Shown here piece after piece: positions 67-57,100 of a stretch of DNA of 59,103 bases. Where the stretch lies: assembly GCA_044070495.1 (NCBI GenBank), contig JBIPSI010000033.1, positions 1-59,103 of the forward strand. Reading direction: 5' to 3'. Below the pieces are notes generated by a model. The model ran no database searches, had not been told where the DNA came from, and saw only the letters and a list, made by a program, of their open reading frames with translations. The translations under genes and the position numbers were made by a program. How positions within the stretch are numbered: position 1 is the stretch's first letter; each line of letters starts with the position of its first letter. The stretch comes from Spirulina sp. Lineage in GTDB: Bacteria > Cyanobacteriota > Cyanobacteriia > Phormidesmidales > Phormidesmidaceae.

Positions 67-123
67 TGCCTGGTAAGTGGACTTAGTGTTCCCAACCAGT
101 AACATTTCTACCAGGCAGAACAA
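60..123 (-). other. Body of the ORF-less first integron cassette
   Basis: Only ~57 bp lie between the attI crossover G|TT (124|123) and the attC R'' box. The cassette ends are complementary: 60-75 GTTGGTGTGCCTGGTA vs 109-124 TACCAGGCAGAACAAC. Confidence 0.75.
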
Positions 124-312
124 CTCTTTATTAGAGGGAAATTTTCCGTCTAATACCCTTATACGGGATCTTAGGTGGAAATCTGTCCGCCTAAATACCC
201 CTAGAGGGATCTTAGGTGGAAAAATTTCAGCCTAAATGCCGAATATGGGATCTTAGGTGGAAAGTTTCAGTATAAACACCCGACGCCCTGGGAGCCTGGT
301 AACTTAAGATTT
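122..312 (-). other. attI region of the integrase-linked integron (core site, phased repeats, probable promoters)
   Basis: Minus strand CTCTAAT-AAAGA-GTT has the attI1 layout (L box, 5 bp, GTT). It is divergent from intI. Identity with the copy at 56910-57100 stops exactly after the GTT. Confidence 0.85.
125..287. repeat. Four tandem ~41-bp palindromic units in attI
   Basis: GGGATCTTAGGTGGAAA occurs exactly at 165, 206 and 247. Each unit has a TTAG..GGAAA/TTTC..CTAA dyad, including a degenerate unit at 131-153. Confidence 0.95.
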
Positions 313-322
313 CCTTAGAAAT

Positions 323-336
323 AGTACGGGCTTACC
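323..336 (+). promoter_or_regulatory. Possible cyanobacterial-type LexA box upstream of intI
   Basis: AGTAC-GGGC-TTACC resembles RGTACNNNDGTWCB with mismatches. It sits just before the ATG and downstream of a TAAGAT -10-like hexamer (305-310). Confidence 0.35.
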
Positions 337-337
337 T

Positions 338-1309
338 ATGGATGCATCGACTCCTCCACCCAAACGCCTGCTTGACCAAGTGCGGGATGCCATTCGGCTC
401 AAGCACTACTCTTACCGCACAGAACAGACCTACGTGCAATGGATTCGGCGGTATATCCTGTTTCACAACAAGCGCCACCCAAATCAAATGGGGGTGCCGG
501 AGATAGAGGCGTTTCTGACCCATCTGGCGGTGCAGGAGCATGTCGCGGCCTCTACGCAGAACCAAGCCCTTAGCGCGTTGTTATTTTTGTATCGAGAAGT
601 TCTGTTTCTGCCCTTGGATGCTCGGATTGATGCGGTGCGGGCCAAGCCATCGCGGAAACTGCCAACGGTTTTGACCAAGGATGAGGTGCGCTCGGTGATT
701 GTGCATATGACCGGGGTTCATCGGCTCATTGTTCAAACGCTCTATGGCAGTGGGCTGCGGCTGCGAGAGGCGATGCAGCTACGGGTGAAGGATTTGGATT
801 TTCCTCAGCATCAAATTGTGGTGCGGGATGCCAAGGGCCACGACAGCCGTGTCACCATGCTTCCGGTTAGTTTGGTGGAGCCTTTACAGGAACACCTTCA
901 GGGAGTGCAGCGGCTCCATCGGCAAGATTTGGAACAGGGCTATGGGGCAACGGTTTTACCCTTTGCCTTAGCCCGGAAGTACCCCAATGCAAACCGCCAA
1001 TGGCACTGGCAGTTTGTGTTTCCGGCTTCGACGCGCTGCCAAGATCCGCGCAGTGGGGCGGTGGTTCGTTATCACTTGCATGAGAGCGGATTGCAAAAGG
1101 CCGTGAAGCAAGCGGTGCGCTGTGCAGGAATTCAAAAGCGAGTGGGTTGTCACACCTTCCGCCATAGCTTTGCCACCCATCTGCTGCAAAACGGCTACGA
1201 CATTCGCACGGTGCAGGAATTGCTGGGCCATAAGGACGTGAAAACCACGATGATTTACACCCATGTGCTGAATCGGGGTGGACGAGGAGTTAGAAGTCCG
1301 CTGGATTGA
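338..1309 (+). CDS. intI: Integron integrase (tyrosine recombinase)
   Basis: 323 aa. N-terminal [14 protein letters not shown], catalytic R-K-HxxR-H-Y set (GLRL, AKG, HTFRH, LGH, IYTH) and the IntI-specific insertion [20 protein letters not shown]. Confidence 0.97.
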
Positions 1310-1342: not shown

Positions 1343-4237
1343 CTACTTCTCCACCAGTTCGCGGAACCAGTTGTCGCTCCAGAGGTCGTCGAAGGCGGGT
1401 TCGGTGCGAGCTTCTTCTTTATAGTCAGGGTCGAGACGAACGGCCTGTTGGAGGCATTCCAGGGTCATGTCGGATTCCCGCTGGAGGGCGTAGCAGAGGG
1501 CTTTGTTGTAGTGGGCCTTGGCGTAGTCCGGGTCGAGGGCGATAGCTTTATCGAAACTCTTGATCGCCTCGTCATCGCGCCCTAATTTGACCAGGGCCAA
1601 GCCGCGATTATCCCAGGCTTTAGGTAATTCGGCATTAAAGCGAGTGGCTTTATCGAAGGAGGAAAGGGCATCTTCGTAGCGTTCTAATTCCAGCAGAGAC
1701 AGACCGCGATTGAGCCAAGCAATGGCATCATTGGCCTGGATTTCGACGGCTCTATCAAAGGATTGGAAGGCTTCTTCGTGTCGCTGCAAAATGCCGTAGG
1801 AAACCCCTCGATTCACCCAGGCTTCGTGGTATTCGGGGTTGATTTCTAGGGCTTTATCGAAGGCCGTAATCGCATCTTCCCGCCGCTTTAGACGACTCAA
1901 CACCATGCCTCGATTCAGCCATACTTTGGGGTCTTCGGGGGTGATGTCGGCTAGTTTTTCAAACACCTCTAAGGCATCTTCGGGGCGGCGCAGTTCCCGC
2001 AATAACAAGCCTTTTTGATAGAGAGCTAGGTGATGGCGGGGGCTGATGGTGAGCAGGCGATCTAGGGAGGTAACGGCGGCTTCGAGCTGTTCCAAGGCTT
2101 GCTGGGCCTTGGCGCGATTTAGCCAGGTATTGACGTTGTTGGGCTGAATTTCTAGGGCTTTGTCGTACTCACCGAGGGCGAGGTCGTAGTCTTCGGCCTC
2201 TAGGTATCTATCGCCTGCCTGGATGTATTCTTCGGCGGTGAGGAACAGTTCGGGGCGGTTGAGTTCTAGGCGGGTGAGCTTGTCGGTGACGGTCTCAAAT
2301 TGCTGGCGGGTTTCGCTCATGAACACATCCGAGATGTACTCTGGCGTGACTTCCGCGAGGCGATCCAAAATGTCGGACTTTTGGCGCATCGCCTCGGCCT
2401 GGATGGCCTCTAGGCGCACCTTGTAGCTTTGCTGGAGCAGGGCCAAATCCCCCAGAGCCACCTCACGACCTGCTTCCACATCGGCTTGCAGTTGGGTGAG
2501 GCGGTCGCCCATTTCCGCCATTAGCGCTTCGAGCCGTAGTCGCACCTGATCCTGGCGTTCGGCGGTGGCGGATTCCAGGTTGGCGAGGTCTTCGCTGAGG
2601 CGGCGGTCGAAGGTGTCGATTTTATCCAGCACCCGGTCGCGCTTGGTGAAGATCATCTCCCGTGCCTGGGTGAGCTGGTCGGTAAAGGCGGCTTCCATGA
2701 CCCGCAGGCCGTCGAGGGACTGCATTTGCTGTTCGCCCACCTGCTCTTGCAGGACGCGCACCTGTTGACTGAAGGCCGTCGCCGTCGCCTCCAAATCGCT
2801 AAGAATCGTGCTTTTCTGAATTTCCGACTCCGTGGCCATTTGGGCAAGCTGGGCCTGGAGGCGTTGGGCCATGTCCTGAAATTCGTCGAGGGTGCCCCGC
2901 TGGCGGCTGTCTACCTCGGTGCGGGTGGTGGCAAAGCGGTCGAGGGCATCGTCGGCGGCGCGGCGCAGGTCAAACAGGAGGGCTTCCTGACGCTGTTCGA
3001 TGTCGCTACGCAGACCGGAAAACTGGCCCAAAAATTCGTCCGCCGAGCGGCGCAGGTCTTGCAGAATGCGGCTGCGCTGGGCTTCCACCTCGGTACGCAG
3101 GTTGGCGAAGCGCTGGGTAAATTCGTCGATGGAGTTTTGGATATTTTGAATGGCCAAATCCCGATGGCCAAAGGCGCTGACCTGCAATTCCCCCAGTTGG
3201 CGGCTGATCTCCTGTTCCTGGGTTTGCAAGCGTCCCAGACTTTCTTGTTTGAGGGCATCCAGGGATTCGGCAATCTCGGCGGTCTGTTGGCCTACCTGCT
3301 CACTGGCCTGGTTGGTCAACTGCTGCCGTAGGTCGGCTAGGGCGGTCATCACCCGATCCCGCTCTTCTTGGACGGTGGTGGTCATGGCGGTCATCCGATC
3401 CGCCAAACTGGCTTCGCTATTGGCCAGCTTTTGCAGCACCGCATCCTGCTGTACCTCCACATCGCCGCGCAGACGATTCACGTCCCGCAAAAATCCGGTT
3501 TGGTTTTCCTCCATCACCCGAAACACCGCATCCCGCTGCATTTGGGTGTCCTTACGCAGGTTGGTGACTTGGTCTTCGGCGGACTGGCGCAGGCTCACCA
3601 AGCGACCGACAAAATCTGCCTCGGTGGATTCCAGTTTCACCTGAAGTTCCGCCAGGGTCGATTGCCAATCGTTGAGGGTACGGGCTTTGAACTCGGCCAG
3701 ATCGTCCACAATCCGGTTTAGCACCTGCTTTTTGGTCAGGGCTTCTTCCTGGAAACGATCCGTGCGGCTGGTGATGGCGGCGGCCTGTTCCTCGGCCTGG
3801 TTGAGGATGTAGTCTAAATCGCGGGTGGCGGACTGGATGCGGGTTTCTAGGTCGGTAATTTCGTTAATTTGCTTGCGGACGATGCCAGACACTTCCTGAA
3901 TTACCGAACGCCGCATCAGCCAGAGCATGGCCACGCCCAGCCCCAGTAGCAGCACCAGCGTTCCCAGCAGCACCATAAATAGGGTGGTCGCCCGTCGAAA
4001 AGCCAGATCCGCTTCCCGCTGGAGCTGCTGAATTTCCGCCGTGCTAGCCTGGGCAATCAGAATGTCATCGTCCGTCGTACTCGCTTGGGCCAGCAGAACC
4101 TTATCCCCAACCAAGTCATTCCCTAGGGAAACGGCCTCAGCCCTTGATATGCCAACAACACCGCCGCTCAGCAACGCCAGCGACAGCAACAGCAAGGGAC
4201 GGGGCAGGGTGGCAAAGGGGCGAGAAATCGGCCTCAT
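1343..4237 (-). CDS. Membrane-anchored coiled-coil protein with C-terminal TPR repeats
   Basis: Signal-like and TM segments, ~550 aa heptad-rich helix, and ~8 TPR motifs (AWVNRG..., AWDNRG...). ATG 4237 preferred over 4321. Confidence 0.85.
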   Translation of the reverse strand: MRPISRPFATLPRPLLLLSLALLSGGVVGISRAEAVSLGNDLVGDKVLLAQASTTDDDILIAQASTAEIQQLQREADLAFRRATTLFMVLLGTLVLLLGLGVAMLWLMRRSVIQEVSGIVRKQINEITDLETRIQSATRDLDYILNQAEEQAAAITSRTDRFQEEALTKKQVLNRIVDDLAEFKARTLNDWQSTLAELQVKLESTEADFVGRLVSLRQSAEDQVTNLRKDTQMQRDAVFRVMEENQTGFLRDVNRLRGDVEVQQDAVLQKLANSEASLADRMTAMTTTVQEERDRVMTALADLRQQLTNQASEQVGQQTAEIAESLDALKQESLGRLQTQEQEISRQLGELQVSAFGHRDLAIQNIQNSIDEFTQRFANLRTEVEAQRSRILQDLRRSADEFLGQFSGLRSDIEQRQEALLFDLRRAADDALDRFATTRTEVDSRQRGTLDEFQDMAQRLQAQLAQMATESEIQKSTILSDLEATATAFSQQVRVLQEQVGEQQMQSLDGLRVMEAAFTDQLTQAREMIFTKRDRVLDKIDTFDRRLSEDLANLESATAERQDQVRLRLEALMAEMGDRLTQLQADVEAGREVALGDLALLQQSYKVRLEAIQAEAMRQKSDILDRLAEVTPEYISDVFMSETRQQFETVTDKLTRLELNRPELFLTAEEYIQAGDRYLEAEDYDLALGEYDKALEIQPNNVNTWLNRAKAQQALEQLEAAVTSLDRLLTISPRHHLALYQKGLLLRELRRPEDALEVFEKLADITPEDPKVWLNRGMVLSRLKRREDAITAFDKALEINPEYHEAWVNRGVSYGILQRHEEAFQSFDRAVEIQANDAIAWLNRGLSLLELERYEDALSSFDKATRFNAELPKAWDNRGLALVKLGRDDEAIKSFDKAIALDPDYAKAHYNKALCYALQRESDMTLECLQQAVRLDPDYKEEARTEPAFDDLWSDNWFRELVEK

Positions 4238-4309
4238 CAGGGATAGTCCTAGGTGCGGGCTTATGACAGCAAACCCGTTGAATATGCTTAGGATAACTGA
4301 TAGCCTGAC

Positions 4310-4400
4310 GGCCTGACACATCTAGCCTTTGGTGCGCTGTAGCCAGGTCACTCTCGGCTTTGCGAAACCATCCCTCGGCTAAATCACGCTGATTTTTCAT
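4310..4400 (-). pseudogene. Truncated HEPN-domain gene (partner of the upstream nucleotidyltransferase)
   Basis: ATG overlaps the MNT 3' end. MKNQRDLAEGWFRKAESDLATAHQRL matches a HEPN N-terminal helix, then the similarity is lost. Confidence 0.65.
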
Positions 4401-4719
4401 AGAGTACGTGCCCTTCCCGGAGAGCGGTGGTGATAAACGCATTGGGAACCGCCGCCCATTCCTGGACTTCGGCTGGTGTCCAAACGGTGATGTCCTTAGA
4501 TGAAAATAGGCCTACCAAGGCTCGATAGTAGCGGGGGGATCGCTTGAATCGAGGCAGTTGGGAGTTTTCAATAATCAGCAAGTCTAGGTCGCTATTGGGG
4601 TGGGTGTCTCCCCGTGCTTGGGAACCAAACAGGACGATTTTCAGCGGTGCGCCTACACTCCGAAGACGCTGTACAACCTCGTTAAGCAAAGCTTCACTGG
4701 CTGGATTTTGGCTGAGCAT
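4384..4719 (-). CDS. Minimal nucleotidyltransferase (MNT) domain protein
   Basis: LFGSQARGD...SDLDLL motif, 111 aa. Confidence 0.9.
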   Translation of the reverse strand: MLSQNPASEALLNEVVQRLRSVGAPLKIVLFGSQARGDTHPNSDLDLLIIENSQLPRFKRSPRYYRALVGLFSSKDITVWTPAEVQEWAAVPNAFITTALREGHVLYEKSA

Positions 4720-4895
4720 GGTTTAGGGGAAAAGTAGGTTGACTGGGGCTGTCTGTCTTTCAACCATGTCTTTTATCGTAGCCTGATCAGCAAAGCAGCG
4801 AACTTCTGGGCGGTGATCTAACACAACGGGAAAGGCGCTACTAACAATGTAGATGTAGATTAAGTGCACCAAGGGTGGACTCCAGCCCCCCTCGC

Positions 4896-5130
4896 CTAGG
4901 GCCAAATGCGGTGCAAGGTGAGGATAAAGCCTGGGAGAACCGACTCCCCTGATAATTGACTCGCCTGATAATTGACTCGGACGCTCTAGTACCTCAATGG
5001 CTTGTCCTTGGCGATAGACTTCAACCCGCTGGCTATAGGAATCCATCAACCAGCCTAACTGTGTTCCATTGGCCAGATATTCCTCCATCTTCTCCCGCAA
5101 GAGGGTAAGCGAGTCTGTTTTAGAGCGTCA
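4896..5130 (-). pseudogene. Uma2-family endonuclease fragment, frameshifted
   Basis: SKTDSLTLLREKMEEYLANGTQLGWLMD...VEVYR. The C-terminal LSGESVLPGFIL is out of frame because of a 16-bp tandem duplication (4948-4979). The N-terminal half is absent. Confidence 0.8.
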
Positions 5131-5164
5131 TTTCACTTTTAGTCCACGGCCTGAGACTAACGCC

Positions 5165-5719
5165 CTAACGGCCATAGTTGTAGCCCGTGGGCAAAATGGT
5201 GGTGTCATCGCAGCAGCTATCCGTCAAATCGACCCCAACGGCCCGAAAGAGATTGCACTGCCGCAGGTTAGCGCCGTGGAGGATAGCCCCCTCTAGCCTT
5301 GCCCCCACCAGGGTGCAGCCCTCCAAATTGGCATCCGTGAGGTCGGCCTGCCGCAGATCGGCCCCGCTGAGGTTGGCCCCCCGCAGATCGCAGCCCTGCA
5401 AATTAGCGGTTTGCAAATCGGTGCGGCTGAAGTCGGCCTGGGTGCAATGCGCCCCGTCTAGGTTGGCCCCATAGAAGTTGCTGTCCCCTAGTTGGGCCTC
5501 GCTGAAGTTAACGCCCTTGAGGTTAGCTAGGGTGAAGTTGCAGTAGGGTAAGTAAGCCTGGGCTAAGCAGCTTTCCTCAAGATCAATGCCCCGCAGGTTC
5601 GCCTGAAACAGGTGAATCGCGGTCATGTCCCGCTGGGAAAACTGCCGCTGACCCTCACGGTAGGCTTGTTGTAAAGCGTCCCCAGTCAGTCGCTGCATAG
5701 TCACCAACAAGTTACCCAT
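5165..5719 (-). CDS. Pentapeptide repeat protein
   Basis: Repeated A(D/N)Lxx units; YREGQRQF N-terminus typical of cyanobacterial members. Confidence 0.92.
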   Translation of the reverse strand: MGNLLVTMQRLTGDALQQAYREGQRQFSQRDMTAIHLFQANLRGIDLEESCLAQAYLPYCNFTLANLKGVNFSEAQLGDSNFYGANLDGAHCTQADFSRTDLQTANLQGCDLRGANLSGADLRQADLTDANLEGCTLVGARLEGAILHGANLRQCNLFRAVGVDLTDSCCDDTTILPTGYNYGR

Positions 5720-5903
5720 ACTCGGCTCAACAGGTTTGGTTAAGCCCCAGCAGATGGGTATATGTGCTTAACCAAAACCCGCCCTTCACTGTAAAGGGTT
5801 TACGTTTCGTCATAACGCACCGTTAAGCATCTCTTCAGGTTTAGGCAAACCTCCCCAGATAAACGGCACCCATCCTAAATCCCGATGGCTTACCCAAAAT
5901 CAA

Positions 5904-5934
5904 GGGGACGAGGAGACCTCGCCCCTACGGTTGG
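5904..5934 (-). repeat. REP-like GTAG palindrome
   Basis: Reverse complement of CCAACCGTAGGGGCGAGGTCTCCTCG-CC at 44884-44912. Confidence 0.75.
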
Positions 5935-6034
5935 ATGCTTTGAGTACTAGGGTTGTTTCATTCAGATTTGAGTCAGCCTCTAAGAGGCTGGAACTCTTAG
6001 AGGTCAAGCCCCACCGGAGTCGGGCCTGCGGCCA

Positions 6035-7216
6035 TTAGGGGGTTCGGCGAGAGAAGAGCTTGAAGTAGAGCCAGTGGCCTGCCTCATGGAAGGGAAACAG
6101 CAGGTAGGTGAGGGGGTTGATGGTAACGATGATGTTACGCACGTTGCGTTTGGCGAGGGCCACCACCGCCCAGGCCACCCAACCTGCCGACATCACCCCC
6201 ACCGGGTTGAGGTTGCTTTTGAACGGCCCCAGGATCACCTTTCGCACCACACAGGGGGCATCCAGCCGCTTTAGGGTCACTAGTTCTCCCATCAGCCGCT
6301 TAGAGATTTCGTACAGGGGGCTAAAGGCGGGGTTGACCTCGGCCTCAGAGGTGTTCACCCACACTTCTTTATTGGCTCGCTGGGGGGAAGTTTCCACGGT
6401 GCTAAAGAACGCTTCCATCAGCCGCAGACCAGAGAGGGCATTGACCTCCAGGGATTGGGCGATGGCCGCTGGGGTGCGCTGTCCGTGGACGTTGGTGCCG
6501 TGGTTAATCACCAGAATATCCACCCGCCGCAGGGCTTCCTGTAGTTCGGCTTCGGCCCCCGGTTGCCAACGCCAGCAGGGCACGGTTTCCGGGAAATCTG
6601 CCCCGTCGGAGGTGGTGAGGGCGATGGGCTTGGCCCGTTGCTTTAAGAGTTCTTCAATGAGGGCGCGGCCCAGGGTGCCCGATGCCCCGGTTACGGCCAC
6701 GGTTTTGCCCTTCAGAGAGACAGCGGTACCCATCACCTTGTCTATCCCAGTAAAGTACCCAGCAAAGTAAGCATTGGTATCGTCAAAATGGTGCCGCCAG
6801 TGGTAAGTGCGGTTCACCAGCCAGTTGCTCGGCGGGGTGGTGAGTTCCCCCGGTTCGTGGGTGAGGTCGGTGGTGCGTAGCCAGCCCTGGGAACGGGCAA
6901 TGGCCGCCGCCAAAAAGCCGCCGCCGTACAGTACACCTAGCCACAGCCCCGGAACCCCCGTCCCCAAGGCCACCAGGGCCATCACCGCCATCATCACCAG
7001 GGCCTCAGGCACATCGTTGTGGAGCTGGGCCTGACGATAAATCTCTTCGCTGACGGGGGTGAAATCTTTTTTATAGGCCCGATGGTGCCAATTGTGGAGC
7101 GCCACCACGGGCGACCAATAATGGCCGAGCACATGGTAGCCATCCCGCACAACCTCCACCACCAGCACGGAGGCTAAGCCCCATAGGCCCTGTATCACAA
7201 CCGTTTGCAACGGCAT
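6035..7216 (-). CDS. Bifunctional sterol-desaturase-like/short-chain dehydrogenase
   Basis: His boxes (HNWHH, HWRHH), then TGASGTLG Rossmann and YEISK motifs. Confidence 0.88.
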   Translation of the reverse strand: MPLQTVVIQGLWGLASVLVVEVVRDGYHVLGHYWSPVVALHNWHHRAYKKDFTPVSEEIYRQAQLHNDVPEALVMMAVMALVALGTGVPGLWLGVLYGGGFLAAAIARSQGWLRTTDLTHEPGELTTPPSNWLVNRTYHWRHHFDDTNAYFAGYFTGIDKVMGTAVSLKGKTVAVTGASGTLGRALIEELLKQRAKPIALTTSDGADFPETVPCWRWQPGAEAELQEALRRVDILVINHGTNVHGQRTPAAIAQSLEVNALSGLRLMEAFFSTVETSPQRANKEVWVNTSEAEVNPAFSPLYEISKRLMGELVTLKRLDAPCVVRKVILGPFKSNLNPVGVMSAGWVAWAVVALAKRNVRNIIVTINPLTYLLFPFHEAGHWLYFKLFSRRTP

Positions 7217-7327
7217 ACTGATCGCCTCACACCAACAAAAAACATCCCTATTCTGCCACGCCAAGGAAAGGGTCTGGGCAGAATAGGGCGTTTGTACGGC
7301 GTTCGCCTGGGGCAATGGGCTGAGGCG

Positions 7328-8434
7328 TTAGGTGGCGGCAGGGCCGTCGGCTTCTTCCTGAACACCAACGGAATGGGACACTTCAACGCCATTTTGCTCT
7401 AAAACCACCACGGGTTCATTGCCGCGCATGTCAATACGCTTCACCAGCACCGAACCCCCTGCCACCCGTTGGCCCACAGCCACATAGCGACCCGTGGGTT
7501 CATCGGGCGACTGCACAATGGCGTAGGTGCGGCTGCCAATGGTCATCACCCCCGTGACAACGACCTCCTGGGCCTGGGTGGGTTCCGGTAGGGACGGCAA
7601 GGGAGCCAGGGCGATCTCCCCAGGAGGGGAAGCGGGTTGTCCGCCTGGGCCAGCGGGTTGGGCCGCCGTGCCGCCGCCCGGACTGGGTTGAGCCGCCGTG
7701 CCGCCAGGGCTAGGAGCAGCACCTCCACCCGGACTGGGAGGAGTCGTGCCACCGGGTGCGGTGGTGGGCGCAGCGGCAGTGGGCGCAGTGGGGATACCGC
7801 CCGTATTAGCTGGGGCGGCGGGGGTAGGACTTCCTGGCGGGGGAGGTGGGGGCGTGACCTGGGGCGGGGGGGGCACAGGTACCGTCGCAAAGGGGTCGGG
7901 GCGACGACTGTTGATCTGTCGAATGCGCTCCTCTGGATCGGTGGATTGAATCAGTTCGGCGCTGGTGGTGATATTGGCGAGTTGGGGTGCAGCGGGTACC
8001 ATCGGGGTGGCAAAGTCTGGGTCGCCGCCCTCCCCAGTCCCTTGATCGACCGGAGCTTCTTCGATGGGCACCTGATCAAGGGGCACCTGGTCAATAGGAA
8101 CTTGATCGATGGGCACCTGGTCAAGGGGTTCTTCGGTAACGATCCCATCCCCCATCTGGATATCCAGTTGCGCCTGACGCATGAAACCAGCCAAGAAAGG
8201 AATTCCAGCCAGCGTGGCCACTAGACCCGCCATGGAGGTGATTAAACTAATTTTGGCCCACTTGCGACTGCCCCAGAACTTAATGCAAAAGATCAGCAGG
8301 ACAAAGGGGACGAAAAAGGATAGCAGACCCCAAACCGGGCTGACCCGAAAGGCATCAATGAGACCAATTAGCCCCCCCACAGTGGACAGGAGGATGCCCA
8401 AAATAAACAAGACGAGAAAAATAGCGGCTCCCAT
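7328..8434 (-). CDS. Pro-rich membrane protein with a PilP/GspC-like C-terminal beta domain
   Basis: Three N-terminal TM helices, PxDQV repeats, RPDPF motif, and TGVM...AIV...YVAVGQRV. Family assignment is inferred. Confidence 0.65.
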   Translation of the reverse strand: MGAAIFLVLFILGILLSTVGGLIGLIDAFRVSPVWGLLSFFVPFVLLIFCIKFWGSRKWAKISLITSMAGLVATLAGIPFLAGFMRQAQLDIQMGDGIVTEEPLDQVPIDQVPIDQVPLDQVPIEEAPVDQGTGEGGDPDFATPMVPAAPQLANITTSAELIQSTDPEERIRQINSRRPDPFATVPVPPPPQVTPPPPPPGSPTPAAPANTGGIPTAPTAAAPTTAPGGTTPPSPGGGAAPSPGGTAAQPSPGGGTAAQPAGPGGQPASPPGEIALAPLPSLPEPTQAQEVVVTGVMTIGSRTYAIVQSPDEPTGRYVAVGQRVAGGSVLVKRIDMRGNEPVVVLEQNGVEVSHSVGVQEEADGPAAT

Positions 8435-8504
8435 GGAGACCTCTCCTTCATTGCCCTAGCTCGATGCCTCAACGATAGCTCAATTATTCAGAGGTGGAGC
8501 GGCC

Positions 8505-9284: not shown

Positions 9285-9844
9285 AGCGATGTTCAGGAAA
9301 GGGCAAGGTCTAGGTGGTTAGACGGGAGGATTCTCATTGGTGTTATCAGCCTAATGGCGTAGCCTAGGACATCACAATGTCGTATCTACGGAGACAGTCA
9401 TTAACCTTTCCCTTAGTATAGGAGGCTACGAAATTTCCCTTCGCCCTGGGCTATGGTTGCAGCAATGGTGGCTCTAACCTAAGGAGTTTGACTCCTCCTA
9501 CTGTAGGAGGATATTCCTTGCTATCAGCCTTGTTCAGCGATTGTCGTCGTCGTCACTCTGCAAAAGGCTAAGATGGCCAAGGCAATTCCTACCTTGGGTC
9601 GGATCGTCCTGGTCTTTCCTGAAATGACCGCAGGTTCGTCCTGATTCCTGCTCAGATCGGGCCTCCGAGGCAGCAAAGCTTTTACATTCTCTTCAATATC
9701 TCCGCAGTTCTGCGGACTGCGCTTCACAGAACTTCACTCCGTTTCCCTCCGGCGGTTCTCAATCGGCGGAGCGATGACCTCGCGGCAGGATAGGGTGGCA
9801 AGTGGCACAATAGGGGGGTTATAAGGCTATGTTTCCCTCACGCC

Positions 9845-10834: not shown

Positions 10835-10850
10835 GGGTACATCACTGCGC

Positions 10851-10936: not shown

Positions 10937-10960
10937 TAGCTTGATTCCCGTCAGGGTGGG

Positions 10961-46181: not shown

Positions 46182-46233
46182 CGCTGAGGAACGAAATGGC
46201 CAGGGGAAATCGGGGGTTGCAAGGGGCACCCGA

Positions 46234-46692: not shown

Positions 46693-46886
46693 GAACTTAC
46701 CTTATATGCCTTTTCCCACACTCTATCAGGCCTGTTCCTACCGCTAACATGGGGATTTACGGAACTTGTTAATCCGTATTGCGAAAAATTACGAGGATCG
46801 TCAGTATCATAGGTGACATGTCATGGCCCCTATGTAACACCCCGTAAATTTCCCGCGATGGCGATCCAGTAGCTTTGGGGATTCGC

Positions 46887-48398: not shown

Positions 48399-48501
48399 AG
48401 TCAAACCTGTGCAATTCCAGTAGACTCTAGCACGACAAACCGGGGTTATCCGGCTCTCTATCGGATGATTTTTGGGTGATGTTTCAGGGAATTTTGGCAC
48501 T

Positions 48502-48945
48502 ATGACTGGCTACCGCAACCCCGCCCCCACGGTGGATTTGATTATCGAACTACTGCACCATCCCCATCGCCCCATTGTGCTGATTGAGCGCCACAATCCT
48601 CCCCTGGGCTGGGCCTTGCCCGGTGGCTTTGTGGACTATGGCGAATCCGTGGAAGCCGCCGCCCGCCGCGAAGCCCTGGAGGAAACCCAACTGGCCGTCA
48701 CCCTGGTGGAGCAACTGGTGGTTTACTCCGACCCCCAGCGCGACCCCCGCCAGCATACCCTCAGCGTGGTGTTCCTCGCCACCGCCACCACCGACCCCAT
48801 CGCCGGAGACGACGCCAAAACCGCTGCTATCATCAACCCCTGGGCCTTGCCCGAAAACCTTTGCTTTGATCACGACCGCATTTTGCGAGATTATTGGCAG
48901 TACCGCTTCTACGGCCACCGCCCCCGCTTTGGGGTGGATATGTAG
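48502..48945 (+). CDS. NUDIX hydrolase
   Basis: Nudix box [23 protein letters not shown]. Confidence 0.93.
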
Positions 48946-48966
48946 GCTCTTGTTGGCTAAGTTCTA

Positions 48967-49068
48967 GCCCTCACCCCCAGCCCCTCTCCCAGGAAGGAGA
49001 GGGGGGCCGAAAGCATCCTTCAAAGTCCCTCTCCTTCCTGGGAGAGGGATTTAGGGTGAGGGCCACAG
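48967..49068. repeat. Dispersed palindromic repeat (CCCTCTCCC...GGGAGAGGG family)
   Basis: Long dyad; inverted homologue of 10851-10936. Confidence 0.85.
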
Positions 49069-49116
49069 GGACTTTGCAACTCGCGCAAGTCGATTTTTGT
49101 TCTAGTAAGGCAGATC

Positions 49117-49506
49117 ATGGAACGCACCATTATTAATACCCCGACCGCCCCCGCTCCCGTTGGCCCCTACAACCAGGCCGTAGCGGTGACGGGGCAACTG
49201 CTGTTCGTCTCTGGCCAAATTGCCCTCGACCCCGCCACCGGGGAACTGGTTGGCCCTGGGGATGTGGTGGCCCAAACCGAGCAGGTGATCGCCAACCTCA
49301 AGGCCATTCTCACCGCCGCCGGGGCCAGCTTTGACAACGTGGTGAAAACGGGCGTTTTCCTCAAGGACATGAACGACTTCGCCACCGTCAACGAAATCTA
49401 CGCCAAATACTTTGGCGGGGACAACGCCCCCGCCCGTGCCTGTGTGGAGGTGGCCCGCCTGCCCAAGGATGTGGCGGTGGAAATTGAGTGCATCGCCGCC
49501 CTGTAG
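49117..49506 (+). CDS. ridA: RidA-family deaminase
   Basis: [16 protein letters not shown] and [20 protein letters not shown]. Confidence 0.92.
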
Positions 49507-49585
49507 TACTCCCGATTGACAGACAAAACCTGCCAAAACCCCTCCCTGTCAAAGGGGCACAGGATTGAGAACTAGGTCGTTGTGG

Positions 49586-50962
49586 CTAGCCTCGTACCCA
49601 GTCCTCTAGGGTTTTGGCAGCGGTGGGTAGGGCAGCGGTGAGCACCTCGCAACCCAGATCGGTAATCAGAACATCGTCTTCGATACGGATGCCGCGCACG
49701 TCGGCGAACAACTCCAGACGATCCCAGTTCACCGCATCATCGTACTGACCCGACTGGCGGGCTGGGCCTAGGATGCCAGGAACTTGGTAAAACCCCGGCT
49801 CAATGGTCACGACCATGCGGGGGGCTAGGGGTCGATCCAGCCTCAGGAATCCTAGGCCAAAGCGGTCACTGCGTTGCCGTCCTGGCGCATAGCCCGCCAC
49901 ATCCCCCAAGTCCTCCATGTCGTGAACATCTAGCCCCAGCAGATGCCCTACCCCGTGGGGAAAGAACAGGGCGTGGACATCACGATCCACCAGATCATCG
50001 GGCTGGCCGCTCAGAATACCCAAGTCCACGAAGCCAGCCGCTAAGGTACGACAGGCTAGCAGGTGCAGGTTGCGATATTCTACCCCTGGTTTTGCCGCCG
50101 CAATGCAGGCATCGTGGGCCGCTAGCACCACGTTGTAGAGATCCCGCTGGGGCGCTGAGAATTGGCCAGAAACGGGCCAGGTGCGGGTAATATCTGCGGC
50201 CCAGCCCTGGGGGGTTTCGGCTCCGGCATCCACCAGCAGCAGATCGCCCGGTTGCAGGGGGTGGTGGTAGTGATCGTTGTGGAGCACCTCGCCGTGGGTG
50301 GTGACAATGCTGTTGTAGGCACAGGGACACTGGTGGGCCATCATCACCTGCTCTAGGGCGGCGCGAACTTCGGCCTCGGTGGTGGCGTGGCGGGTAGCGG
50401 CCATCCCGGCTTGATGGGCCTGTGCCGAGACTTGAGCGGCCCATTGCATCTCCGCCAAGGCCCAGTCATCGTGGTACAGGCGTAGGTCAACGATGGCCTG
50501 GGTAAGGGCCATTTGCTGGGGAGAGGCGGTGGCCAGCGTGGCGGCGGTGGGCAGGGGAATGGCGGTGGCGGCCCGCTGGGGTAATTCTGCCAGGGGATAA
50601 ACCGCCTCGGCCCCGATGGCAACGGCCTGATCTTCAGGGCTGGGGGTTGGCCCATGCCACAGGGCGGCCCCGGCAGGAGGAGCATCCATAAACAGCGTGG
50701 CCTTGCCGTTCTCCAGCACTAGGGCAGCACCGGGCAGGGGACGACCCGCGAAGTAGAGAAAGTGGCTACTGGCCCGAAAAGGATAGGTATTAGCCGGAAA
50801 GTTACGGGAAACCGGCTGTCCTGCCCACAGCACCACCGCCCCCGCAAACCGCTGGCCCAGCCCTAACCGCCGCTGGATCAAACAGCCCAGGGCCAGGGGA
50901 GACAGATCTGGCCCTGGGGATAACAACCCTTGATCGGAATCAATCGTATTCACCATTGCCAT
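49586..50962 (-). CDS. Xaa-Pro aminopeptidase (M24)
   Basis: DAGAE...ADITRT, HGVGHLLGLDVHD, TIEPG and GIRIEDD. Start approximate. Confidence 0.92.
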   Translation of the reverse strand: MAMVNTIDSDQGLLSPGPDLSPLALGCLIQRRLGLGQRFAGAVVLWAGQPVSRNFPANTYPFRASSHFLYFAGRPLPGAALVLENGKATLFMDAPPAGAALWHGPTPSPEDQAVAIGAEAVYPLAELPQRAATAIPLPTAATLATASPQQMALTQAIVDLRLYHDDWALAEMQWAAQVSAQAHQAGMAATRHATTEAEVRAALEQVMMAHQCPCAYNSIVTTHGEVLHNDHYHHPLQPGDLLLVDAGAETPQGWAADITRTWPVSGQFSAPQRDLYNVVLAAHDACIAAAKPGVEYRNLHLLACRTLAAGFVDLGILSGQPDDLVDRDVHALFFPHGVGHLLGLDVHDMEDLGDVAGYAPGRQRSDRFGLGFLRLDRPLAPRMVVTIEPGFYQVPGILGPARQSGQYDDAVNWDRLELFADVRGIRIEDDVLITDLGCEVLTAALPTAAKTLEDWVRG

Positions 50963-51138
50963 AGGTCTACTCTTTACCAAGAATACGTTTTTTTGCTAAA
51001 ACCCTAAAGCTAGGTGTAGTGCTACCCCAAGCCCTGAGGAGATAGCGTAGGATACTCCTAATGAAATCACTTTTACTAAGTTCAGTTCAAATATACTATT
51101 AGGTGGTGTGATGACTAGCCTAGTTTAGGTTTAGCGTT

Positions 51139-51474
51139 ATGGCTTCCTTACTTCTTCGACCAGGGGCACGGGTGCGGCTTAAAGGACAAGACGACCACGT
51201 CCCCGATTTCTACGTTGTCCGTTGCGACCACGACCGCTGCTGGATTCGCCAACCCAATTGGAATCCTGAGGCCACGATGGATGTTCGCTTCACGCAGCTT
51301 TTTGTTCCTGGGCCGACCTCATCGGTGTCCATGGTCTCAGGGGGGGTGGCATTGCCGCCCTTAGCCTCGGCAGGGTTGGCTGCCGTCGCGATGGCTCCCC
51401 CATCAGCGGATCAGCCACCATGGCCCGACAATGTCATTGATATGGCGGCCTATCGGCGGCGCAAGGCTCGCTAG
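51139..51474 (+). CDS. Hypothetical protein
   Basis: ATG ORF with an SH3-like beta-rich start and an NVIDMAAYRRRK tail. Confidence 0.65.
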   Translation: MASLLLRPGARVRLKGQDDHVPDFYVVRCDHDRCWIRQPNWNPEATMDVRFTQLFVPGPTSSVSMVSGGVALPPLASAGLAAVAMAPPSADQPPWPDNVIDMAAYRRRKAR

Positions 51475-51648
51475 AGGCCACGCAGATTGCTGGGGTGTAG
51501 CCGTAGGCACAGAGCGCCAAGTCCTCTGGGAGTAGGGTAAATTACCTACTAGGCTGCTGAGGTCACTTGCGGCTGAGTCCTAGCCGGTTAGCCTTCATCC
51601 CTAGGGAGATGGCTGAACCTGTTGTTTTACCCTCCCATACAAACCCCG

Positions 51649-51867
51649 ATGACGCTTTTAGCCCGATTCCTCCAGCTTCTGCGATTTCTGGAGGACTTGC
51701 TTGAGTTTCTAGATATCTTGACAACCCCACCAGGGCAGGTAGCGATGGTAGGAGTTGGGTTATATGTAGGCTTAATTTGGATCGGTAGCGAAGCCTCTAC
51801 CGCCGCTACCCTAGCGGGTTCGGTAGCCCTCGCCCTAAGCTGTGTTTTGACTCGCCCTTGGTTCTAG
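51649..51867 (+). CDS. Small hypothetical membrane protein
   Basis: Two hydrophobic helices. Confidence 0.5.
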   Translation: MTLLARFLQLLRFLEDLLEFLDILTTPPGQVAMVGVGLYVGLIWIGSEASTAATLAGSVALALSCVLTRPWF

Positions 51868-51935
51868 GGAGCAGACCAGACGCCACGCAAGATCCCTAAG
51901 GATGGGTTATCGCAGCTTCGGTCAAGGCACTTATC

Positions 51936-52430
51936 CTAGCCTTGCAACAGGCTAACGAGGTGGGGAAGTTCCGGCAGAATCAGGGCATCCATCGCCAGCT
52001 TCACTGCTTTGCTTGATCCAGGTAGGGAAAACAGCAGCTTGCCTCGATACACCCCCGCCACCGCACGGGAGGCCATAGCCCTAGAGCCGATTTCCTGAAA
52101 GCTTAGCTGCCGGAACAGTTCGCCAAAGCCGGGAAGGGTTTTCTCTAGCAGAGCTTCGAGGGCATCGTAGGTGGTGTCGCGGGGGGCAATGCCGGTGCCG
52201 CCGTTGACGATCACCGCATCCAGATCATCCCGCTTGGCCCACTGCACCACCAGATCCCGAATCACCGCTGGCTCATCGGCCACAATGCAATAATCCGCGA
52301 TCTGGTGTCCCGCCTCCGTTAGCCCAGATTGAATCAGCGCCCCGCTTTGGTCGGTGTCTGGGGTGCGGGTATCGCTGACCGTCAGCACGGCGCAGCGCAG
52401 CGGACGCTCTAGGGGACGGGGGTGGGCCAT
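51936..52430 (-). CDS. MogA/MoaB molybdenum cofactor biosynthesis protein
   Basis: LTVSDTR, GGTGIAPRDTT, LPGFGELFR and LPGS. Confidence 0.93.
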   Translation of the reverse strand: MAHPRPLERPLRCAVLTVSDTRTPDTDQSGALIQSGLTEAGHQIADYCIVADEPAVIRDLVVQWAKRDDLDAVIVNGGTGIAPRDTTYDALEALLEKTLPGFGELFRQLSFQEIGSRAMASRAVAGVYRGKLLFSLPGSSKAVKLAMDALILPELPHLVSLLQG

Positions 52431-52453
52431 GGCTGGGTTTCCGAACCAATGTT

Positions 52454-52786
52454 CTAGCTCTTGGTGAAGCCGAGACCGTTTTGTTCGGCGTAGCGGTTCA
52501 TGAACCGCATGAAGCGATCCCAGTCGGCTTCGCTTTTCATCACGTAGATGGCCTCAATGCCAGCGGGTTCGCCGTTGATAAACTTGCCGTTCACCTCGCG
52601 AGTCACCAGTTCCCCCTCTTCGTCCACCAAGTACATCCCGGTCACTTCCACGCCGTTTTCGGAGAGGGCCTGGGGATAGTCAAAATAAAAGGTGGCGGTG
52701 CCGTTGGTGCCATCCTTGGCGCGGGTGAGGCGGACATCGGGGATCACGGGTTCGGCGATACCACGGGCAAATTGAATCTCGGCCAT
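52454..52786 (-). CDS. psb28: Photosystem II assembly factor Psb28
   Basis: [26 protein letters not shown] and [13 protein letters not shown]. Confidence 0.97.
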
Positions 52787-53204
52787 GCCAACGTTTCCTT
52801 GTAATCAATACATGAACTATCAATACATAGAATTGTAAACCGCTATCGCTGGTTGACTGACAAAACCGCTATCACTGGTGGCAAAAAGCCGCACCCCCAC
52901 GTTTTGCTCACCGACCTGGCCTACCAATACCGTCCCAGCCTTTGTCGGCTAGGACGCAGATGCACGGATGACGCAGCGGATCGCGCCCCAGGGCAAGACG
53001 GCGGTAACGCAGGCCCAACCGCAATCGCAAGATGCCCCAGGACGATTAGCGGATTGGATGACGCACCGTGGCTAGCCCATAACAGATCAACGCTGCGATC
53101 AGCCTGAGAGGGCGTTTGAAAAGGATTGTCTCAGGGGCAATGGGTCGCTAGATCGGCGTAAATCCTAAGGGATTTTTAACGACTGAGGAAGCAATCTACA
53201 CCCT

Positions 53205-53237
53205 AAGGCCCTCTCCCAACGTGGGAGAGGGCCTTTT
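53205..53237. terminator. Hairpin right after the nuclease stop codon
   Basis: AAGGCCCTCTCCCA-ACG-TGGGAGAGGGCCTT; related to the CCCTCTCCC repeat family. Confidence 0.65.
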
Positions 53238-53241
53238 GAGC

Positions 53242-56200
53242 CTAGAATTGGAAGTTGCTTGGTTGGGCGAGGGCGGCGGCGTCTACATCGAGGAAGGTGG
53301 CGAAGGGCTTGGCGGGTTTGGGGCCACTCAGTCCATCGGGGTCGATGAAGAGGGCGGCGCGTCCGCTGGCACCTTGGGGCCGAATTTGCACCAGCCCATC
53401 GCCGAGGGGATTTTGGCCGTTGTAGCCGAGGCTATCCAGCAGGTCGGTGAGCACCAGTTGGTCTTGGCCGATCTCGAAGTCGGTGATGAAATTCCCGGAC
53501 TGGCTGAGGTCGGTGTAGACGATGCGGTCTCGTCCGCCGCCCGTGGTGATGCGGTCGGGGCCACTGGTGCCGAGGATCAGGTCATTGCCGTCGGTGCCCA
53601 CTAGCACATCGCGCCGTGCCGTGCCCTGAATCAGGTTGGGGGCGGCGATGGTGAAGCGGGAGAGGATGGGGTCGTGGTCGCTGGCTTGTTGGGGGGTCAC
53701 CGCAAACTCGGTGTTGACATGGACGATGTCGTACTCGGCGGTGGCAGCAAGCCCCTGGCTGACCAAGATATGGTCGATGGCCTGGGAGTTGCCCTGGAAG
53801 ATAAAGGTATAGCGTTCGTCTTCGGGAAGGGTTTCCGTGAGGTTGATCAGCCCCGTGTTGCGGGCCAAATCGGCGACGGGGGAGACAAACTCAAACTCGT
53901 TGAGGTCGCCCAAAACCATGACGTTGGCGGCGGGGTCGCTCCCCAGGAGAGCGTTGACGTAGCCCTGCACCGCCTCGGACTGGGCCTGTCGCTCATCCAC
54001 CGAACCGTTGACCGTGGGATCTTCCTGGCGAGCTTCAAAGGGTTGCTGCACGCCCAAAATCGGCGCACTGCCGCCCTTGGAGGAGAAGTGGTTATTCACC
54101 AGGGTGATGGTTTCGTGGTTGAACTCGAAGCTGGCCACCAGGGGCAGCCGCGCCCCGGCAAAGGTCTCCCCGCTGCCCTGGCCACCGATGGTTTGCACAG
54201 AATTTTCCACCAGGCTGACCCGGTCGGGGTTGTACAGGTAGGCGGTGCGGATGTTGCCACCGGGCTGGCCACCGCTGGCCCCATCGGTGATGAAGGGGTT
54301 GTCAATGAAGGCGTAGGTGGGGCCTCCGGCGGCTTGGATGGCGGCGATCAGGGTTTGCAGGGTGAGATCCGCAGCAGTGACCCCGTCGTTATTGCTACCG
54401 CTGTTGTCCTGCACCTCTTGCAGGGCGATGATGTCTGGGCCGTTGAGGTTGGCGACAATCTGCTGGGCAATGGCGGCGAAGCGTCCGTCGGCTAGGTCGC
54501 GATCTCCGTCGTTATCGTTGGGGTCGAGGTTGAGGACGTTGTAGCTGGCCACCGTGAGGGTATCGCCATTGCTAACCAGGGTGCTCACCTCCGGTTGCAG
54601 GTTGGCGGATTGCAGGTTGTCGGCGAAGGGTTCCGTCACCACAATTTCGTAGTTGCCAAACCCATAGCCGACCACCCCCGTCACATCGCCCAGACGGTCG
54701 CCCACGTTGACCAGAGGGAAGACCACATCCGCCACGCCGCTGTCAAACTGAAGCTGCACCCGCTCAGGATTGAAATCGTCGGGGGAAATATTGAGGGTGC
54801 CTCGGTTGCTTAGCCCTGTGGCCTCGGCCCCGTTGTTGACCACGCCAAAGATTTCGTCAAATTGGTTAGTGCCGTTCACCACCCGGAAATCTTGAGCCGT
54901 CACCCGCATCCCTTCAATGGACTCGAAAAAGTCGATGCCATCGGTGAGGGGATCGAAGCTGGCAAAGGCGTCGTCGTCAATGATTTGGCTGGGGGGAATG
55001 CGCCCACCATTGCCGATCACAGTAGCCGCTGGCAGGGTGTTCCCCGACGAGATCGGGGTGACCTGAGGCGAGACAATCTGCGTTGTGGATAGATTGCCTG
55101 TGGATACCCCGCCAGGAGTAAACTCCGACACCGTGCCCTCCACCCGCAGGGCTTGGCCCACCAGAACCCCAGGGGCGCGGCTAGTGAACACAAACAGGGC
55201 ATCGGAGGTGGCGAGATCGCCGTCGCCATTGGCATCTTGCAGGTAAAAGCCGTTGCTATCCACAGCGGTCACAATGCCCGTGGTCGCCACGGTTTGCCCC
55301 ACCAGCGGGGAAATATGCCCGGCCCCCTGAATCGTGTAGATCGGGGTGATCTCCAGGGGCGGCGGCGGCACATCCACCAGGGCATTGGGGGCACCGGGGG
55401 TATTCAGGGCTTCACCTGCCTCTGGGGTATCGTTGATCTCTGACAGTCCGGCGAGGTCAAAGTCGTTGCGTACCCAGTCGGCGGCGGTGTCGGTGTCCTG
55501 GCCATCGGGCAAGCGGGAGGCCCCTCCCGGCACAAAGTTGATGCCATCGAAACCACGGGACAACACCGTGGAGGCATAGACCTGATCGCCACTGCCGCCA
55601 TCGTTAACCGCCACGCTATCCACCAGCACCGTCCAGGGGGTGAGGTCTAGCACGCCGTCGTTATTGGTGTCCAAATCTTGGTTCGCCGTGCCCGTAAAGC
55701 CCTCCACTAGCAGCAGGGTTTGGCTGCCGTTTTGGTAGAAATCTTCGAGAAATCCCGTCGTCCAAAAGCCACTGGCGTCGGTGGTTCCCAGGCTTTGTAC
55801 CGTGGTGACGCGTCCTCGCTCGCTGTTGCTGTCGCCCTCAATTTGCAGCAGGGTATAGGTGCTGTAGTTGGTGTTGGCGCTGCCCAGAATCTCAACGTAT
55901 TCGCGGGTGTCGGCACCGACATGGCTAAACACAAACTCGTTAATGATCGGCTGGCTGGGGCCACTGGTGCCGCCAAAACTTTGGCTGGTGTTGATGCTGC
56001 CGCTGGTGTTGGCGGTGGTGCTTACCCAGGTGAAGTCTTCGTAGGTGGTGCCGCTGCCCGTCAGTTGCAGGGAAGATCCCACGGATTCAGACCCCGTTTG
56101 GCTCACCCCAATGTTCACGCTGGTCATCCCTGCTGCTGGGCCACTCAGGGCCATAAACTGGCCTTCGTAGCTGAGGAACTGCACCACCTGACCCGCATTA

Positions 56201-56466
56201 TTCACCAGGGCAAAGCCATCGGGCGCACCATTTTGAAGCCCCGCAGCGGCAAAGGACAGCGTACCAAAGCCGTTCCCCTGATCCGCAATAACACCGCTCA
56301 GCGCCACCGTGGCATAGGGCGCACGCACTGAGTCTGCACCGTTGTACAGCACCAGACTCCAGCCTGTGAGATCAAAGCCCGCTGGCCCCGCAATTTCGAT
56401 AGATTCGCCCACGTCGGCACCGGCGTTATCGTAGTGAAATTCGTTGATAAAAACAGAGGTCGCCAT
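53242..56466 (-). CDS. Extracellular nuclease (ExeM/NucH-like: lamin-tail-like domains, OB fold, EEP domain, RTX-type tail)
   Basis: FINEFHYDN, IYTIQG, ASYNVLNL, ALQEVQD, LGDLN and ASDHDP, plus a C-terminal GGGRD/ITDF secretion-type tail. Confidence 0.88.
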   Translation of the reverse strand: MATSVFINEFHYDNAGADVGESIEIAGPAGFDLTGWSLVLYNGADSVRAPYATVALSGVIADQGNGFGTLSFAAAGLQNGAPDGFALVNNAGQVVQFLSYEGQFMALSGPAAGMTSVNIGVSQTGSESVGSSLQLTGSGTTYEDFTWVSTTANTSGSINTSQSFGGTSGPSQPIINEFVFSHVGADTREYVEILGSANTNYSTYTLLQIEGDSNSERGRVTTVQSLGTTDASGFWTTGFLEDFYQNGSQTLLLVEGFTGTANQDLDTNNDGVLDLTPWTVLVDSVAVNDGGSGDQVYASTVLSRGFDGINFVPGGASRLPDGQDTDTAADWVRNDFDLAGLSEINDTPEAGEALNTPGAPNALVDVPPPPLEITPIYTIQGAGHISPLVGQTVATTGIVTAVDSNGFYLQDANGDGDLATSDALFVFTSRAPGVLVGQALRVEGTVSEFTPGGVSTGNLSTTQIVSPQVTPISSGNTLPAATVIGNGGRIPPSQIIDDDAFASFDPLTDGIDFFESIEGMRVTAQDFRVVNGTNQFDEIFGVVNNGAEATGLSNRGTLNISPDDFNPERVQLQFDSGVADVVFPLVNVGDRLGDVTGVVGYGFGNYEIVVTEPFADNLQSANLQPEVSTLVSNGDTLTVASYNVLNLDPNDNDGDRDLADGRFAAIAQQIVANLNGPDIIALQEVQDNSGSNNDGVTAADLTLQTLIAAIQAAGGPTYAFIDNPFITDGASGGQPGGNIRTAYLYNPDRVSLVENSVQTIGGQGSGETFAGARLPLVASFEFNHETITLVNNHFSSKGGSAPILGVQQPFEARQEDPTVNGSVDERQAQSEAVQGYVNALLGSDPAANVMVLGDLNEFEFVSPVADLARNTGLINLTETLPEDERYTFIFQGNSQAIDHILVSQGLAATAEYDIVHVNTEFAVTPQQASDHDPILSRFTIAAPNLIQGTARRDVLVGTDGNDLILGTSGPDRITTGGGRDRIVYTDLSQSGNFITDFEIGQDQLVLTDLLDSLGYNGQNPLGDGLVQIRPQGASGRAALFIDPDGLSGPKPAKPFATFLDVDAAALAQPSNFQF

Positions 56467-56909
56467 CGGTCATCTTTCCTTCAAAACATCATGCATCGGC
56501 GGCATTTATCCGCGCCAAAACCGCCCCCCAGGACATCCCAGAGGGACTAGGCCCAATCGCCCAAACCTTCGGCCCAACCCAAACTAGGCCGCTAGACACC
56601 ACAACTTTTCCAGCACCGATAATTTCAGTGCCGCCAACCTATCGGTAGTTTTCAGGGTTGCAGATCCCAGAATTGGAACTGTCCGGGTCTTGCCCTAAGG
56701 GCATCACCACCGCAGGCCAAAATGTCAGTATTTCCACACAGAAGCTTAACAAACGCTTGGTAAAGCCCCCGTTAACAGGGCTTTAAGCCTGAACAGCTTC
56801 ACACAAACTTCATAGACTGCCTCGTGGAGCACTCTGCGAGTGACCAGGGGGATCGAGTTGCGGGAACGGAACTTGCAGCGGTTTTGGGTATTGCCTCAAT
56901 AAGCGCAGA

Positions 56910-57100
56910 AAATCTTAAGGTATCAGACACCCAGAGCGTCGGGTGTTTATACTGAAACTTTCTACCTAAGATCCCATATTCGGCGTTTAGGCTGAAATTT
57001 GTCCACCTAAGATCCCCGCAGGGGTATTTAGACCGACAGATTTCCACCTAAGATCCCGTATAGGGGTATTAGGCGGAAAATTTCCCTCTAATAAAGAGTT
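56910..57100 (+). other. Second attI region with no adjacent integrase; inverted copy of 122-312
   Basis: 191 bp, ungapped, about 15 mismatches by hand alignment. CCTAAGATCCC at 56965, 57006 and 57047. Ends in CTCTAAT-AAAGA-GTT|AGAT. Confidence 0.88.
56924..56953 (+). promoter_or_regulatory. Candidate cassette promoter (Pc-like)
   Basis: TATACT at 56948-56953 is conserved in both attI copies; weak CAGACA -35 hexamer 18 bp upstream. Confidence 0.4.

Follow-up and report, generated by a model that had tools for sequence, protein, structure and literature searches.

The DNA examined here (the window) comprises all 59,103 nt of contig C33 of a draft Spirulina sp. genome (GCA_044070495.1, contig JBIPSI010000033.1), and it contains an integron integrase gene (intI) together with two candidate integron attachment (attI) sites. 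We denote this genome G000 and its other contigs C4, C17 and so on, whereas the genomes of relatives are denoted G005, G018 and so on. The assembly is a k=141 draft of 5.3 Mb in 74 contigs, with an estimated contamination of 1.18%. A repeat search of the window revealed an inverted repeat with arms at positions 122 to 315 and 56907 to 57100, which are 194 nt long, 92% complementary and 56,591 nt apart. The first-pass annotation had placed an inverted repeat of 191 bp around core genes at this locus, and apart from its length this description was borne out. The outward end of both arms reads ...CTCTAATAAAGAG↓TT, where the arrow marks the proposed crossover, and continues with TTGTTCTGCC on the left and TTAGATTGC on the right, exactly as expected for the two outward-facing sites of opposite orientation that had been described. 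Cassettes do lie outside both arms, a 136-nt cassette on the left and a cassette ending in a recombination site of the attC type on the right. Between the arms, profile matches confirm the presence of intI (338 to 1306), topA, ndhB, ftsH, nblS and psb28, but not that of cikA, for which the candidate gene at 12263 to 14575 scores as a generic hybrid histidine kinase only. The coordinates of these features are collected in Table 1. The G+C content of the interior block is 57.8%, compared with 56.7% for the genome, and the full-length intI gene is the sole integron integrase match above the TIGR02249 cutoff in the assembly.

Table 1. Features of the window, with positions counted from the first nucleotide of the contig.
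Feature	Position	Strand	Description
First cassette of left array, partial	1..123	-	136-nt non-coding cassette cut by the contig end; atypical attC-like hairpin
attI_L module (attI-type site)	124..315	-	Simple site (CTCTAAT-AAAGAG↓TTxx) and three 41-nt palindromic units at 136-181, 177-222 and 218-263
TATAAA box facing intI	271..276	+	TATAAT in most relatives; lies in a conserved alignment block of the upstream regions
intI	338..1309	+	TIGR02249, 465.9 bits (cutoff 265), profile positions 1-313 of 315; PF13495 and PF00589
Ordinary chromosomal genes	1343..56466		TPR protein, sigF, topA, ndhB, cobT, ftsH, nblS, malQ, pepQ, moaB, psb28, ExeM/NucH-type nuclease (NCBIfam)
topA	19021-21891		NCBIfam profile match
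ndhB/NuoN	22261-23841		NCBIfam profile match
ftsH	38918-40831		NCBIfam profile match
nblS	41688-43676		NCBIfam profile match
psb28	52457-52786		NCBIfam profile match
attI_R module (attI-type site)	56907..57098	+	Candidate solo attI without intI
First cassette of right array	57099..59103	+	About 1.9 kb; open reading frame and terminal attC, the latter cut by the contig end
Cassette open reading frame	57217-59025		602 aa; DUF7380 and DUF4209 (Pfam); PADLOC PDLC05011, candidate defence family PDC-S39, 893 bits, full length
attC	59020-59103		Canonical; 78.1 bits with covariance model R1

The two arms, hereafter the left copy (attI_L, or C33L) and the right copy (attI_R, or C33-right) of a shared module, differ at 16 positions, and their similarity stops at both ends of each arm. 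Each arm includes three 41-nt direct units, every one of which is an imperfect palindrome, along with a simple site composed of two inverted CTAA/TTAG boxes that are 7 bp apart and followed by the G↓TT cut. The same boxes recur in the 41-bp units, and in the form YCTAA/TTAGR they resemble the R boxes of the attC consensus (GCCTAAC...GTTAGG) derived from an alignment of attC sites from this genome. We compared 27 copies of the module, of which 7 belong to this genome and 20 to relatives. In all 27, similarity is lost immediately after ...AGTT, and the unrelated sequence beyond, which mostly starts with A(G/T)NNNG, creates a GTTRRRY-like junction. Metagenome contigs aligned to the right arm likewise diverge from the window at positions 57094 to 57101. 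In other cyanobacterial genera, the module is located 20 to 220 nt upstream of an intact intI gene at no fewer than nine loci, and an alignment of ten intI upstream regions includes a terminal ...TCTAAT-N-AG↓TTA site, three boxed units and a conserved TATAAT that faces intI. This layout and the uniform breakpoints, which are comparative rather than biochemical evidence, support the earlier proposal that both arms are attI-type sites with a crossover at G↓TT.

Some properties of the module are also consistent with a different origin, wherein it is mainly a dispersed regulatory or mobile repeat (a regulator-bound promoter/operator array, or an element resembling a miniature inverted-repeat transposable element) that came to lie near intI by chance in one copy. 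Indeed, palindromic arms of 17 nt at a 41-nt spacing resemble operator arrays, this genome is rich in other dispersed repeats, and modules persist in genomes where intI was not detected. We nevertheless regard this explanation as quite improbable, given that the position and orientation of the module upstream of intact intI are retained across genera, that every copy breaks at G↓TT with the same type of junction, that cassettes bearing attC sites follow several copies and that remnants of the 5′ end of intI adjoin most of them. Moreover, neither a target-site duplication nor a second defined end was found.

The TATAAA box that faces intI within the left copy is likely to be the −10 element of the integrase promoter (P_int), as judged from its conservation among upstream regions, although a consensus scan gave no full promoter. 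A crude scan of positions 1 to 420, in which cyanobacterial promoters of a different type may escape notice, gave no cassette promoter (Pc) resembling a sigma-70 promoter. Overall, the promoter consensus scans returned no sites on the left and two on the right, compared with 1.0 expected. Only in the right copy is there a weak promoter-like match that faces outward, CAGACA-18-TATACT (9 of 12 positions), and it falls within the range seen for shuffled sequences. Several mismatches between the arms had been said to cluster in a putative −35 region, and the copies had been treated as promoter variants. A cluster is present, with 6 of the 16 mismatches at positions 287 to 313, near the intI-proximal end, but the proposed promoter variants depend on this one weak consensus match, and the scans provide no basis for them. 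A possible LexA-type box near the start of intI was judged by eye and dropped as unconvincing. In the right copy (56907 to 56960), the TATAAA box points to the start of the minus-strand gene for the ExeM/NucH-type extracellular nuclease (53245 to 56466), about 440 nt away, and the nuclease may now be expressed from a promoter that once served an integrase gene.

The cassettes next to both arms extend into neighboring contigs. On the left, positions 1 to 123 of the window are 100% identical over 121 nt to C60 (1-121), C17 (122071-122191) and C25 (4-124) and 94% identical to C43. The 136-nt cassette is present in its full extent on C17, C25 and C43, where its downstream neighbors differ. Its hairpin folds at −23 kcal/mol with bulges and is attC-like by eye and by fold. 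On the right, the first cassette has a G+C content of 42.9%, compared with 57.8% for the interior block. Near-identical pieces of this DUF7380 and DUF4209 cassette, with 0 to 1 differences over 251 to 384 nt, occur in contigs of two other public sequencing runs (X1 and X19), and the cassette therefore circulates beyond the sequenced strain. For a broader view of the arrays, we used an attC covariance model (R1) that was built from seeds found with a fuzzy regular expression. Its census of this genome yielded 16 matches in arrays of one to four sites, 10 of which are seeds or duplicates of seeds, and the count of the bare attC motif in this genome is below chance. Beyond the match in the window, R1 matches are located on C17 (118701 and 121176), on C4 (182035) and on C25 (2438-2524), the overlap partner of the left contig end. 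Among the cassettes are toxin-antitoxin, defence-type and non-coding examples.

Cassettes that occur more than once interrupt a k=141 assembly, which is why both ends of the window fall within arrays. At the left end, C33 and C60 both run into C25 (two branches in, one out), and at the right end C33 runs into C23 or C39 (one in, two out). The last 141 nt of the window are identical to positions 1 to 141 of both C23, which continues with three attC sites, and C39, which continues with four. These two continuations (GTTAT... versus GTTAG...) part exactly at the attC crossover. Such branching at recombination points could reflect repeated cassettes, missing contigs or variants of cassette order in the sequenced population.

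The first-pass annotation had treated the two arms as a special pair, a view that did not survive the search of the whole genome. At least seven copies of the module are present, specifically the left and right copies in the window and those on C60, C53, C4, C17 and C43, and the genome has one intact intI gene. With this many copies, chance alone would be expected to place two of them in inverted orientation on the same contig. Fragments of intI occur on C60, on C23 and on C28, where there are two, one at each end. Most module copies retain from a few to about 110 nt of the 5′ end of intI, although the right copy in the window and that on C4 retain none. No remnant was detected by tblastn (E≤1) or blastn in the 1-kb inner flank of the right copy, and the nearest intI is 55.6 kb away.

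Contig C28 (73.8 kb) has terminal inverted repeats of 435 nt (1-435 and 73367-73801) that are 97.5% identical, with the first 141 nt fully identical. Each end carries a 5′ fragment of intI plus 250 nt of other DNA, both reading inward, and this contig is thus a second large segment bracketed by inverted remnants of an integron platform. The assembly lacks the attI parts that should lie past either end of C28, and therefore the true number of attI sites is probably at least nine.

Relatives exhibit the same multiplicity. Module matches, often several per genome, were obtained in 17 of 24 genomes of the same genus and in 5 of 16 genomes from other families. Among the 20 modules of relatives that were compared, 1 lies beside an intact intI and 5 keep only about 30 codons of the gene. 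The copies pair across species by locus, such that C33L matches a copy on contig C250 of G005 at 99.5% and the C53 copy matches one on contig C219 of G005 at 94.3%; therefore, the duplications are old. The right copy of the window is an old paralogue that differs by about 8% from every other copy and has no close orthologue. In G031, which is assigned to a different family, contig C1 carries 130 nt of the module (2679299-2679428) at 94% identity, much closer than the taxonomic distance predicts, which suggests that the platform has been transferred horizontally. Genomes that carry homologues of intI include named members of Nodosilinea, Leptolyngbya and Phormidesmis, and the host is therefore probably a Nodosilinea-like filamentous cyanobacterium. 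The literature searched returned no account of integrons in Nodosilinea or Leptolyngbya.

We give very little credence to the notion that some of these copies, or the linkage of the two arms, were created by the co-assembly of related strains. Overlaps of k=141 are typical of metagenome-style assembly, the assembly graph is unbalanced at both ends of C33, and the estimated contamination is not zero. Yet the arms differ at 16 positions and are embedded 121 and 2,003 nt from the ends of one unbroken 59-kb contig, and the multi-copy pattern recurs in relatives from other assemblies. The C60 copy was also considered as an allele (strain variant) of C33L, but its flank is unique, and it is thus a true paralogue.

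Two observations on cassettes bear on whether the sites that lack an adjacent integrase are still in use. First, the identical 136-nt cassette stands behind the attI copies of C33L, C60 and C17, which are themselves only 80 to 95% alike, and the identity starts at G↓TT. Second, the orthologous solo sites on C53, on contig C219 of G005 and on contig C82 of G019 represent three species and share an inner flank and an intI remnant, but each is followed by a different first cassette. Because the flank and the remnant are shared, the loss of integrase at this locus predates the split of these species. Both results fit the insertion and excision of cassettes by an integrase acting in trans and suggest that sites without their own integrase gene continue to be used.

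We consider it probable that the two arms are members of a multi-copy attI family comprising one platform and several solo sites that are served by a trans-acting IntI. The left copy would be part of the one complete platform, with intI, the divergent P_int and attI. The right copy would be a solo attI at the head of its own short array, and presumably is a relic of an old duplicated platform from which intI was lost. The 41-bp palindromic units are putative accessory integrase-binding sites that overlap the integrase promoter. Acting most likely in trans, the single IntI would insert and remove cassettes at the solo sites, and the genome would thus run a ‘distributed’ integron in which one integrase serves many docking sites. 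The 56.6-kb block that separates the two copies is ordinary chromosome, for which a flip by attI × attI recombination or by RecA is geometrically possible.

Several points weigh against this interpretation. Gene conversion, rather than IntI, could have spread the identical 136-nt cassette. Modules persist in genomes wherein a search at E≤1e-8 found no integron integrase, namely G019 (nine matches), G021 (five) and the complete genome G018 (three); therefore, a resident IntI is not necessarily required for the module to be conserved. Another role, such as that of a promoter or regulator site, may account for its retention, or its decay may simply be slow. Model R1 misses the atypical attC of the first cassette on the left, it gives no attC in the 750 nt beyond the C53 site or in the approximately 14 kb beyond the C43 site, and its census scored 150 of 623 candidates and so may be incomplete. 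Finally, given the unbalanced branches at both ends of C33, a strain mixture or missing contigs could distort the copy counts.

According to Cury et al. 2016 (PMC4889954), a sedentary chromosomal integron consists of intI, attI and an array of attC cassettes. The left copy and its surroundings fit a standard platform of this type, with a full-length IntI that is divergent from the cassette side and an adjoining attI with a G↓TT crossover. Cassettes of this genome also end in attC hairpins, although the one next to the left copy, cut by the contig end, has the atypical attC-like hairpin described above. The arrays here are unlike those of such integrons in being short (one to four attC sites per locus) and scattered over many loci. 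A textbook integron also has one attI, whereas here the attI region is repeated at least seven times, and the attI1 site described in PMC4792948 has two direct repeats, whereas the sites described here have three 41-bp palindromic units. The right copy fits the concept of a cluster of attC sites lacking integrase (CALIN), which, according to PMC4889954, can originate when one of several integrons loses its intI. As in a CALIN, the right array has cassettes and attC with no intI nearby. The window itself includes one attC on this side, and two or more are reached only through the 141-nt overlap to C23 (three) or C39 (four). Unlike CALINs, the arrays without integrase in this genome keep a conserved and apparently intact attI at their head, and the literature searched gave no account of CALINs or arrays headed by conserved, repeated attI copies.

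Integrons are usually drawn with one integrase and one docking site, and cassette clusters without integrase are regarded as orphans of uncertain origin and activity. The orphans described here keep a recognizable, conserved docking site and exhibit signs of cassette turnover after the local loss of integrase. If confirmed, this arrangement would provide a concrete model for how clusters without integrase stay active, would indicate that comparative analysis can locate attI sites in non-model phyla and would offer a natural system for asking whether attI × attI exchange reshapes chromosomes. In our view, one integrase with many attI sites is a more interesting result than the inversion that was originally proposed for this locus, which, unless demonstrated, adds little to what has been published on class 1 integrons.

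The proposed inversion holds that the pair is an active invertible segment, such that IntI (through attI × attI recombination at G↓TT) or RecA (through the 194-nt arms) flips the 56.6 kb at a meaningful rate and thereby swaps arrays between copies of attI and its promoter. The geometry and the chemistry were correctly anticipated, since recombination between the arms at G↓TT would invert the block and exchange the arrays, and there is a precedent for IntI1. Escudero et al. 2016 (PMC4792948) observed a 72-fold increase in inversion between inverted attI1 sites with IntI1 and proposed that arrays are exchanged en bloc between integrons with stronger and weaker promoters. The present locus is similar in that two inverted attI sites and an intact cognate integrase, here encoded in cis, are both present and the cassettes lie outside both arms, and C28 is likewise bracketed by inverted repeats with intI remnants. 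It differs in that the precedent used plasmid-borne class 1 sites in Escherichia coli, whereas these are natural chromosomal sites on either side of essential genes, with 56.6 kb between them and a divergence of 8%. Another paper, PMC6133989, was set aside as irrelevant because the inversion that it describes is mediated by IS6100.

Inversion is plausible as a reaction and already published for attI1 (PMC4792948), but our data lend it no support, and we regard an actively inverting segment as unlikely. The 55-mers that represent the two recombinant junctions both occur zero times in the assembly, wherein each parental junction occurs once and the contig is unbroken through the right junction, although a consensus assembly would hide rare variants. 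With 8% divergence and a longest identical run of 28 nt, the arms are a poor substrate for RecA. PMC4792948 places attI × attI events three to four orders of magnitude below reactions that involve attC. Moreover, among seven or more copies, pairs in direct orientation would delete core genes, which suggests selection against frequent attI × attI exchange, and the promoter difference on which an array swap would act comes down to the one weak match in the right copy.

Other sources of evidence were uninformative on this question. In a search of public sequencing runs, none shared at least 50% of the words sampled from the window, the best share being 0.26, and the four public runs that were aligned to the window provided only Logan contigs from other organisms with no joints, which is no test of inversion. 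In five relatives, one of them a complete genome, the blocks from both inner ends of the window are dispersed among separate contigs or remote positions. The nearest relatives are mosaic at the kilobase scale, with contig C64 of G019 ending within the TPR gene. Because gene order in the genus is this scrambled, collinearity says nothing on inversion. The GC skew of the window tracks the gene strand and, in the absence of flanks, gives no usable switch. A combined model, in which a distributed integron undergoes occasional attI × attI exchange that inverts or translocates core blocks and swaps arrays, strikes us as doubtful. If true, such exchange would help to explain the inverted brackets of C33 and C28 and the poor conservation of gene order in the genus.

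The interior block includes several further features. Two small gene pairs at 18321 to 18990 and 4387 to 5100 resemble toxin-antitoxin systems of the HepT/MntA type (type VII), with weak matches below cutoff. A gene for a 994-aa pentapeptide-repeat protein has a 15-nt tandem periodicity at 36190 to 36535, and an open reading frame of 1889 aa at 27943 to 33609 includes 60-nt repeats and is without a family match. Small dispersed repeat families of approximately 100 to 140 nt, one of them palindromic, are represented at 48946 to 49080, 10850 to 10881, 37980 to 38124 and around 5870 to 5970, and the copy numbers of these families range from dozens to over 100, both here and in close relatives.

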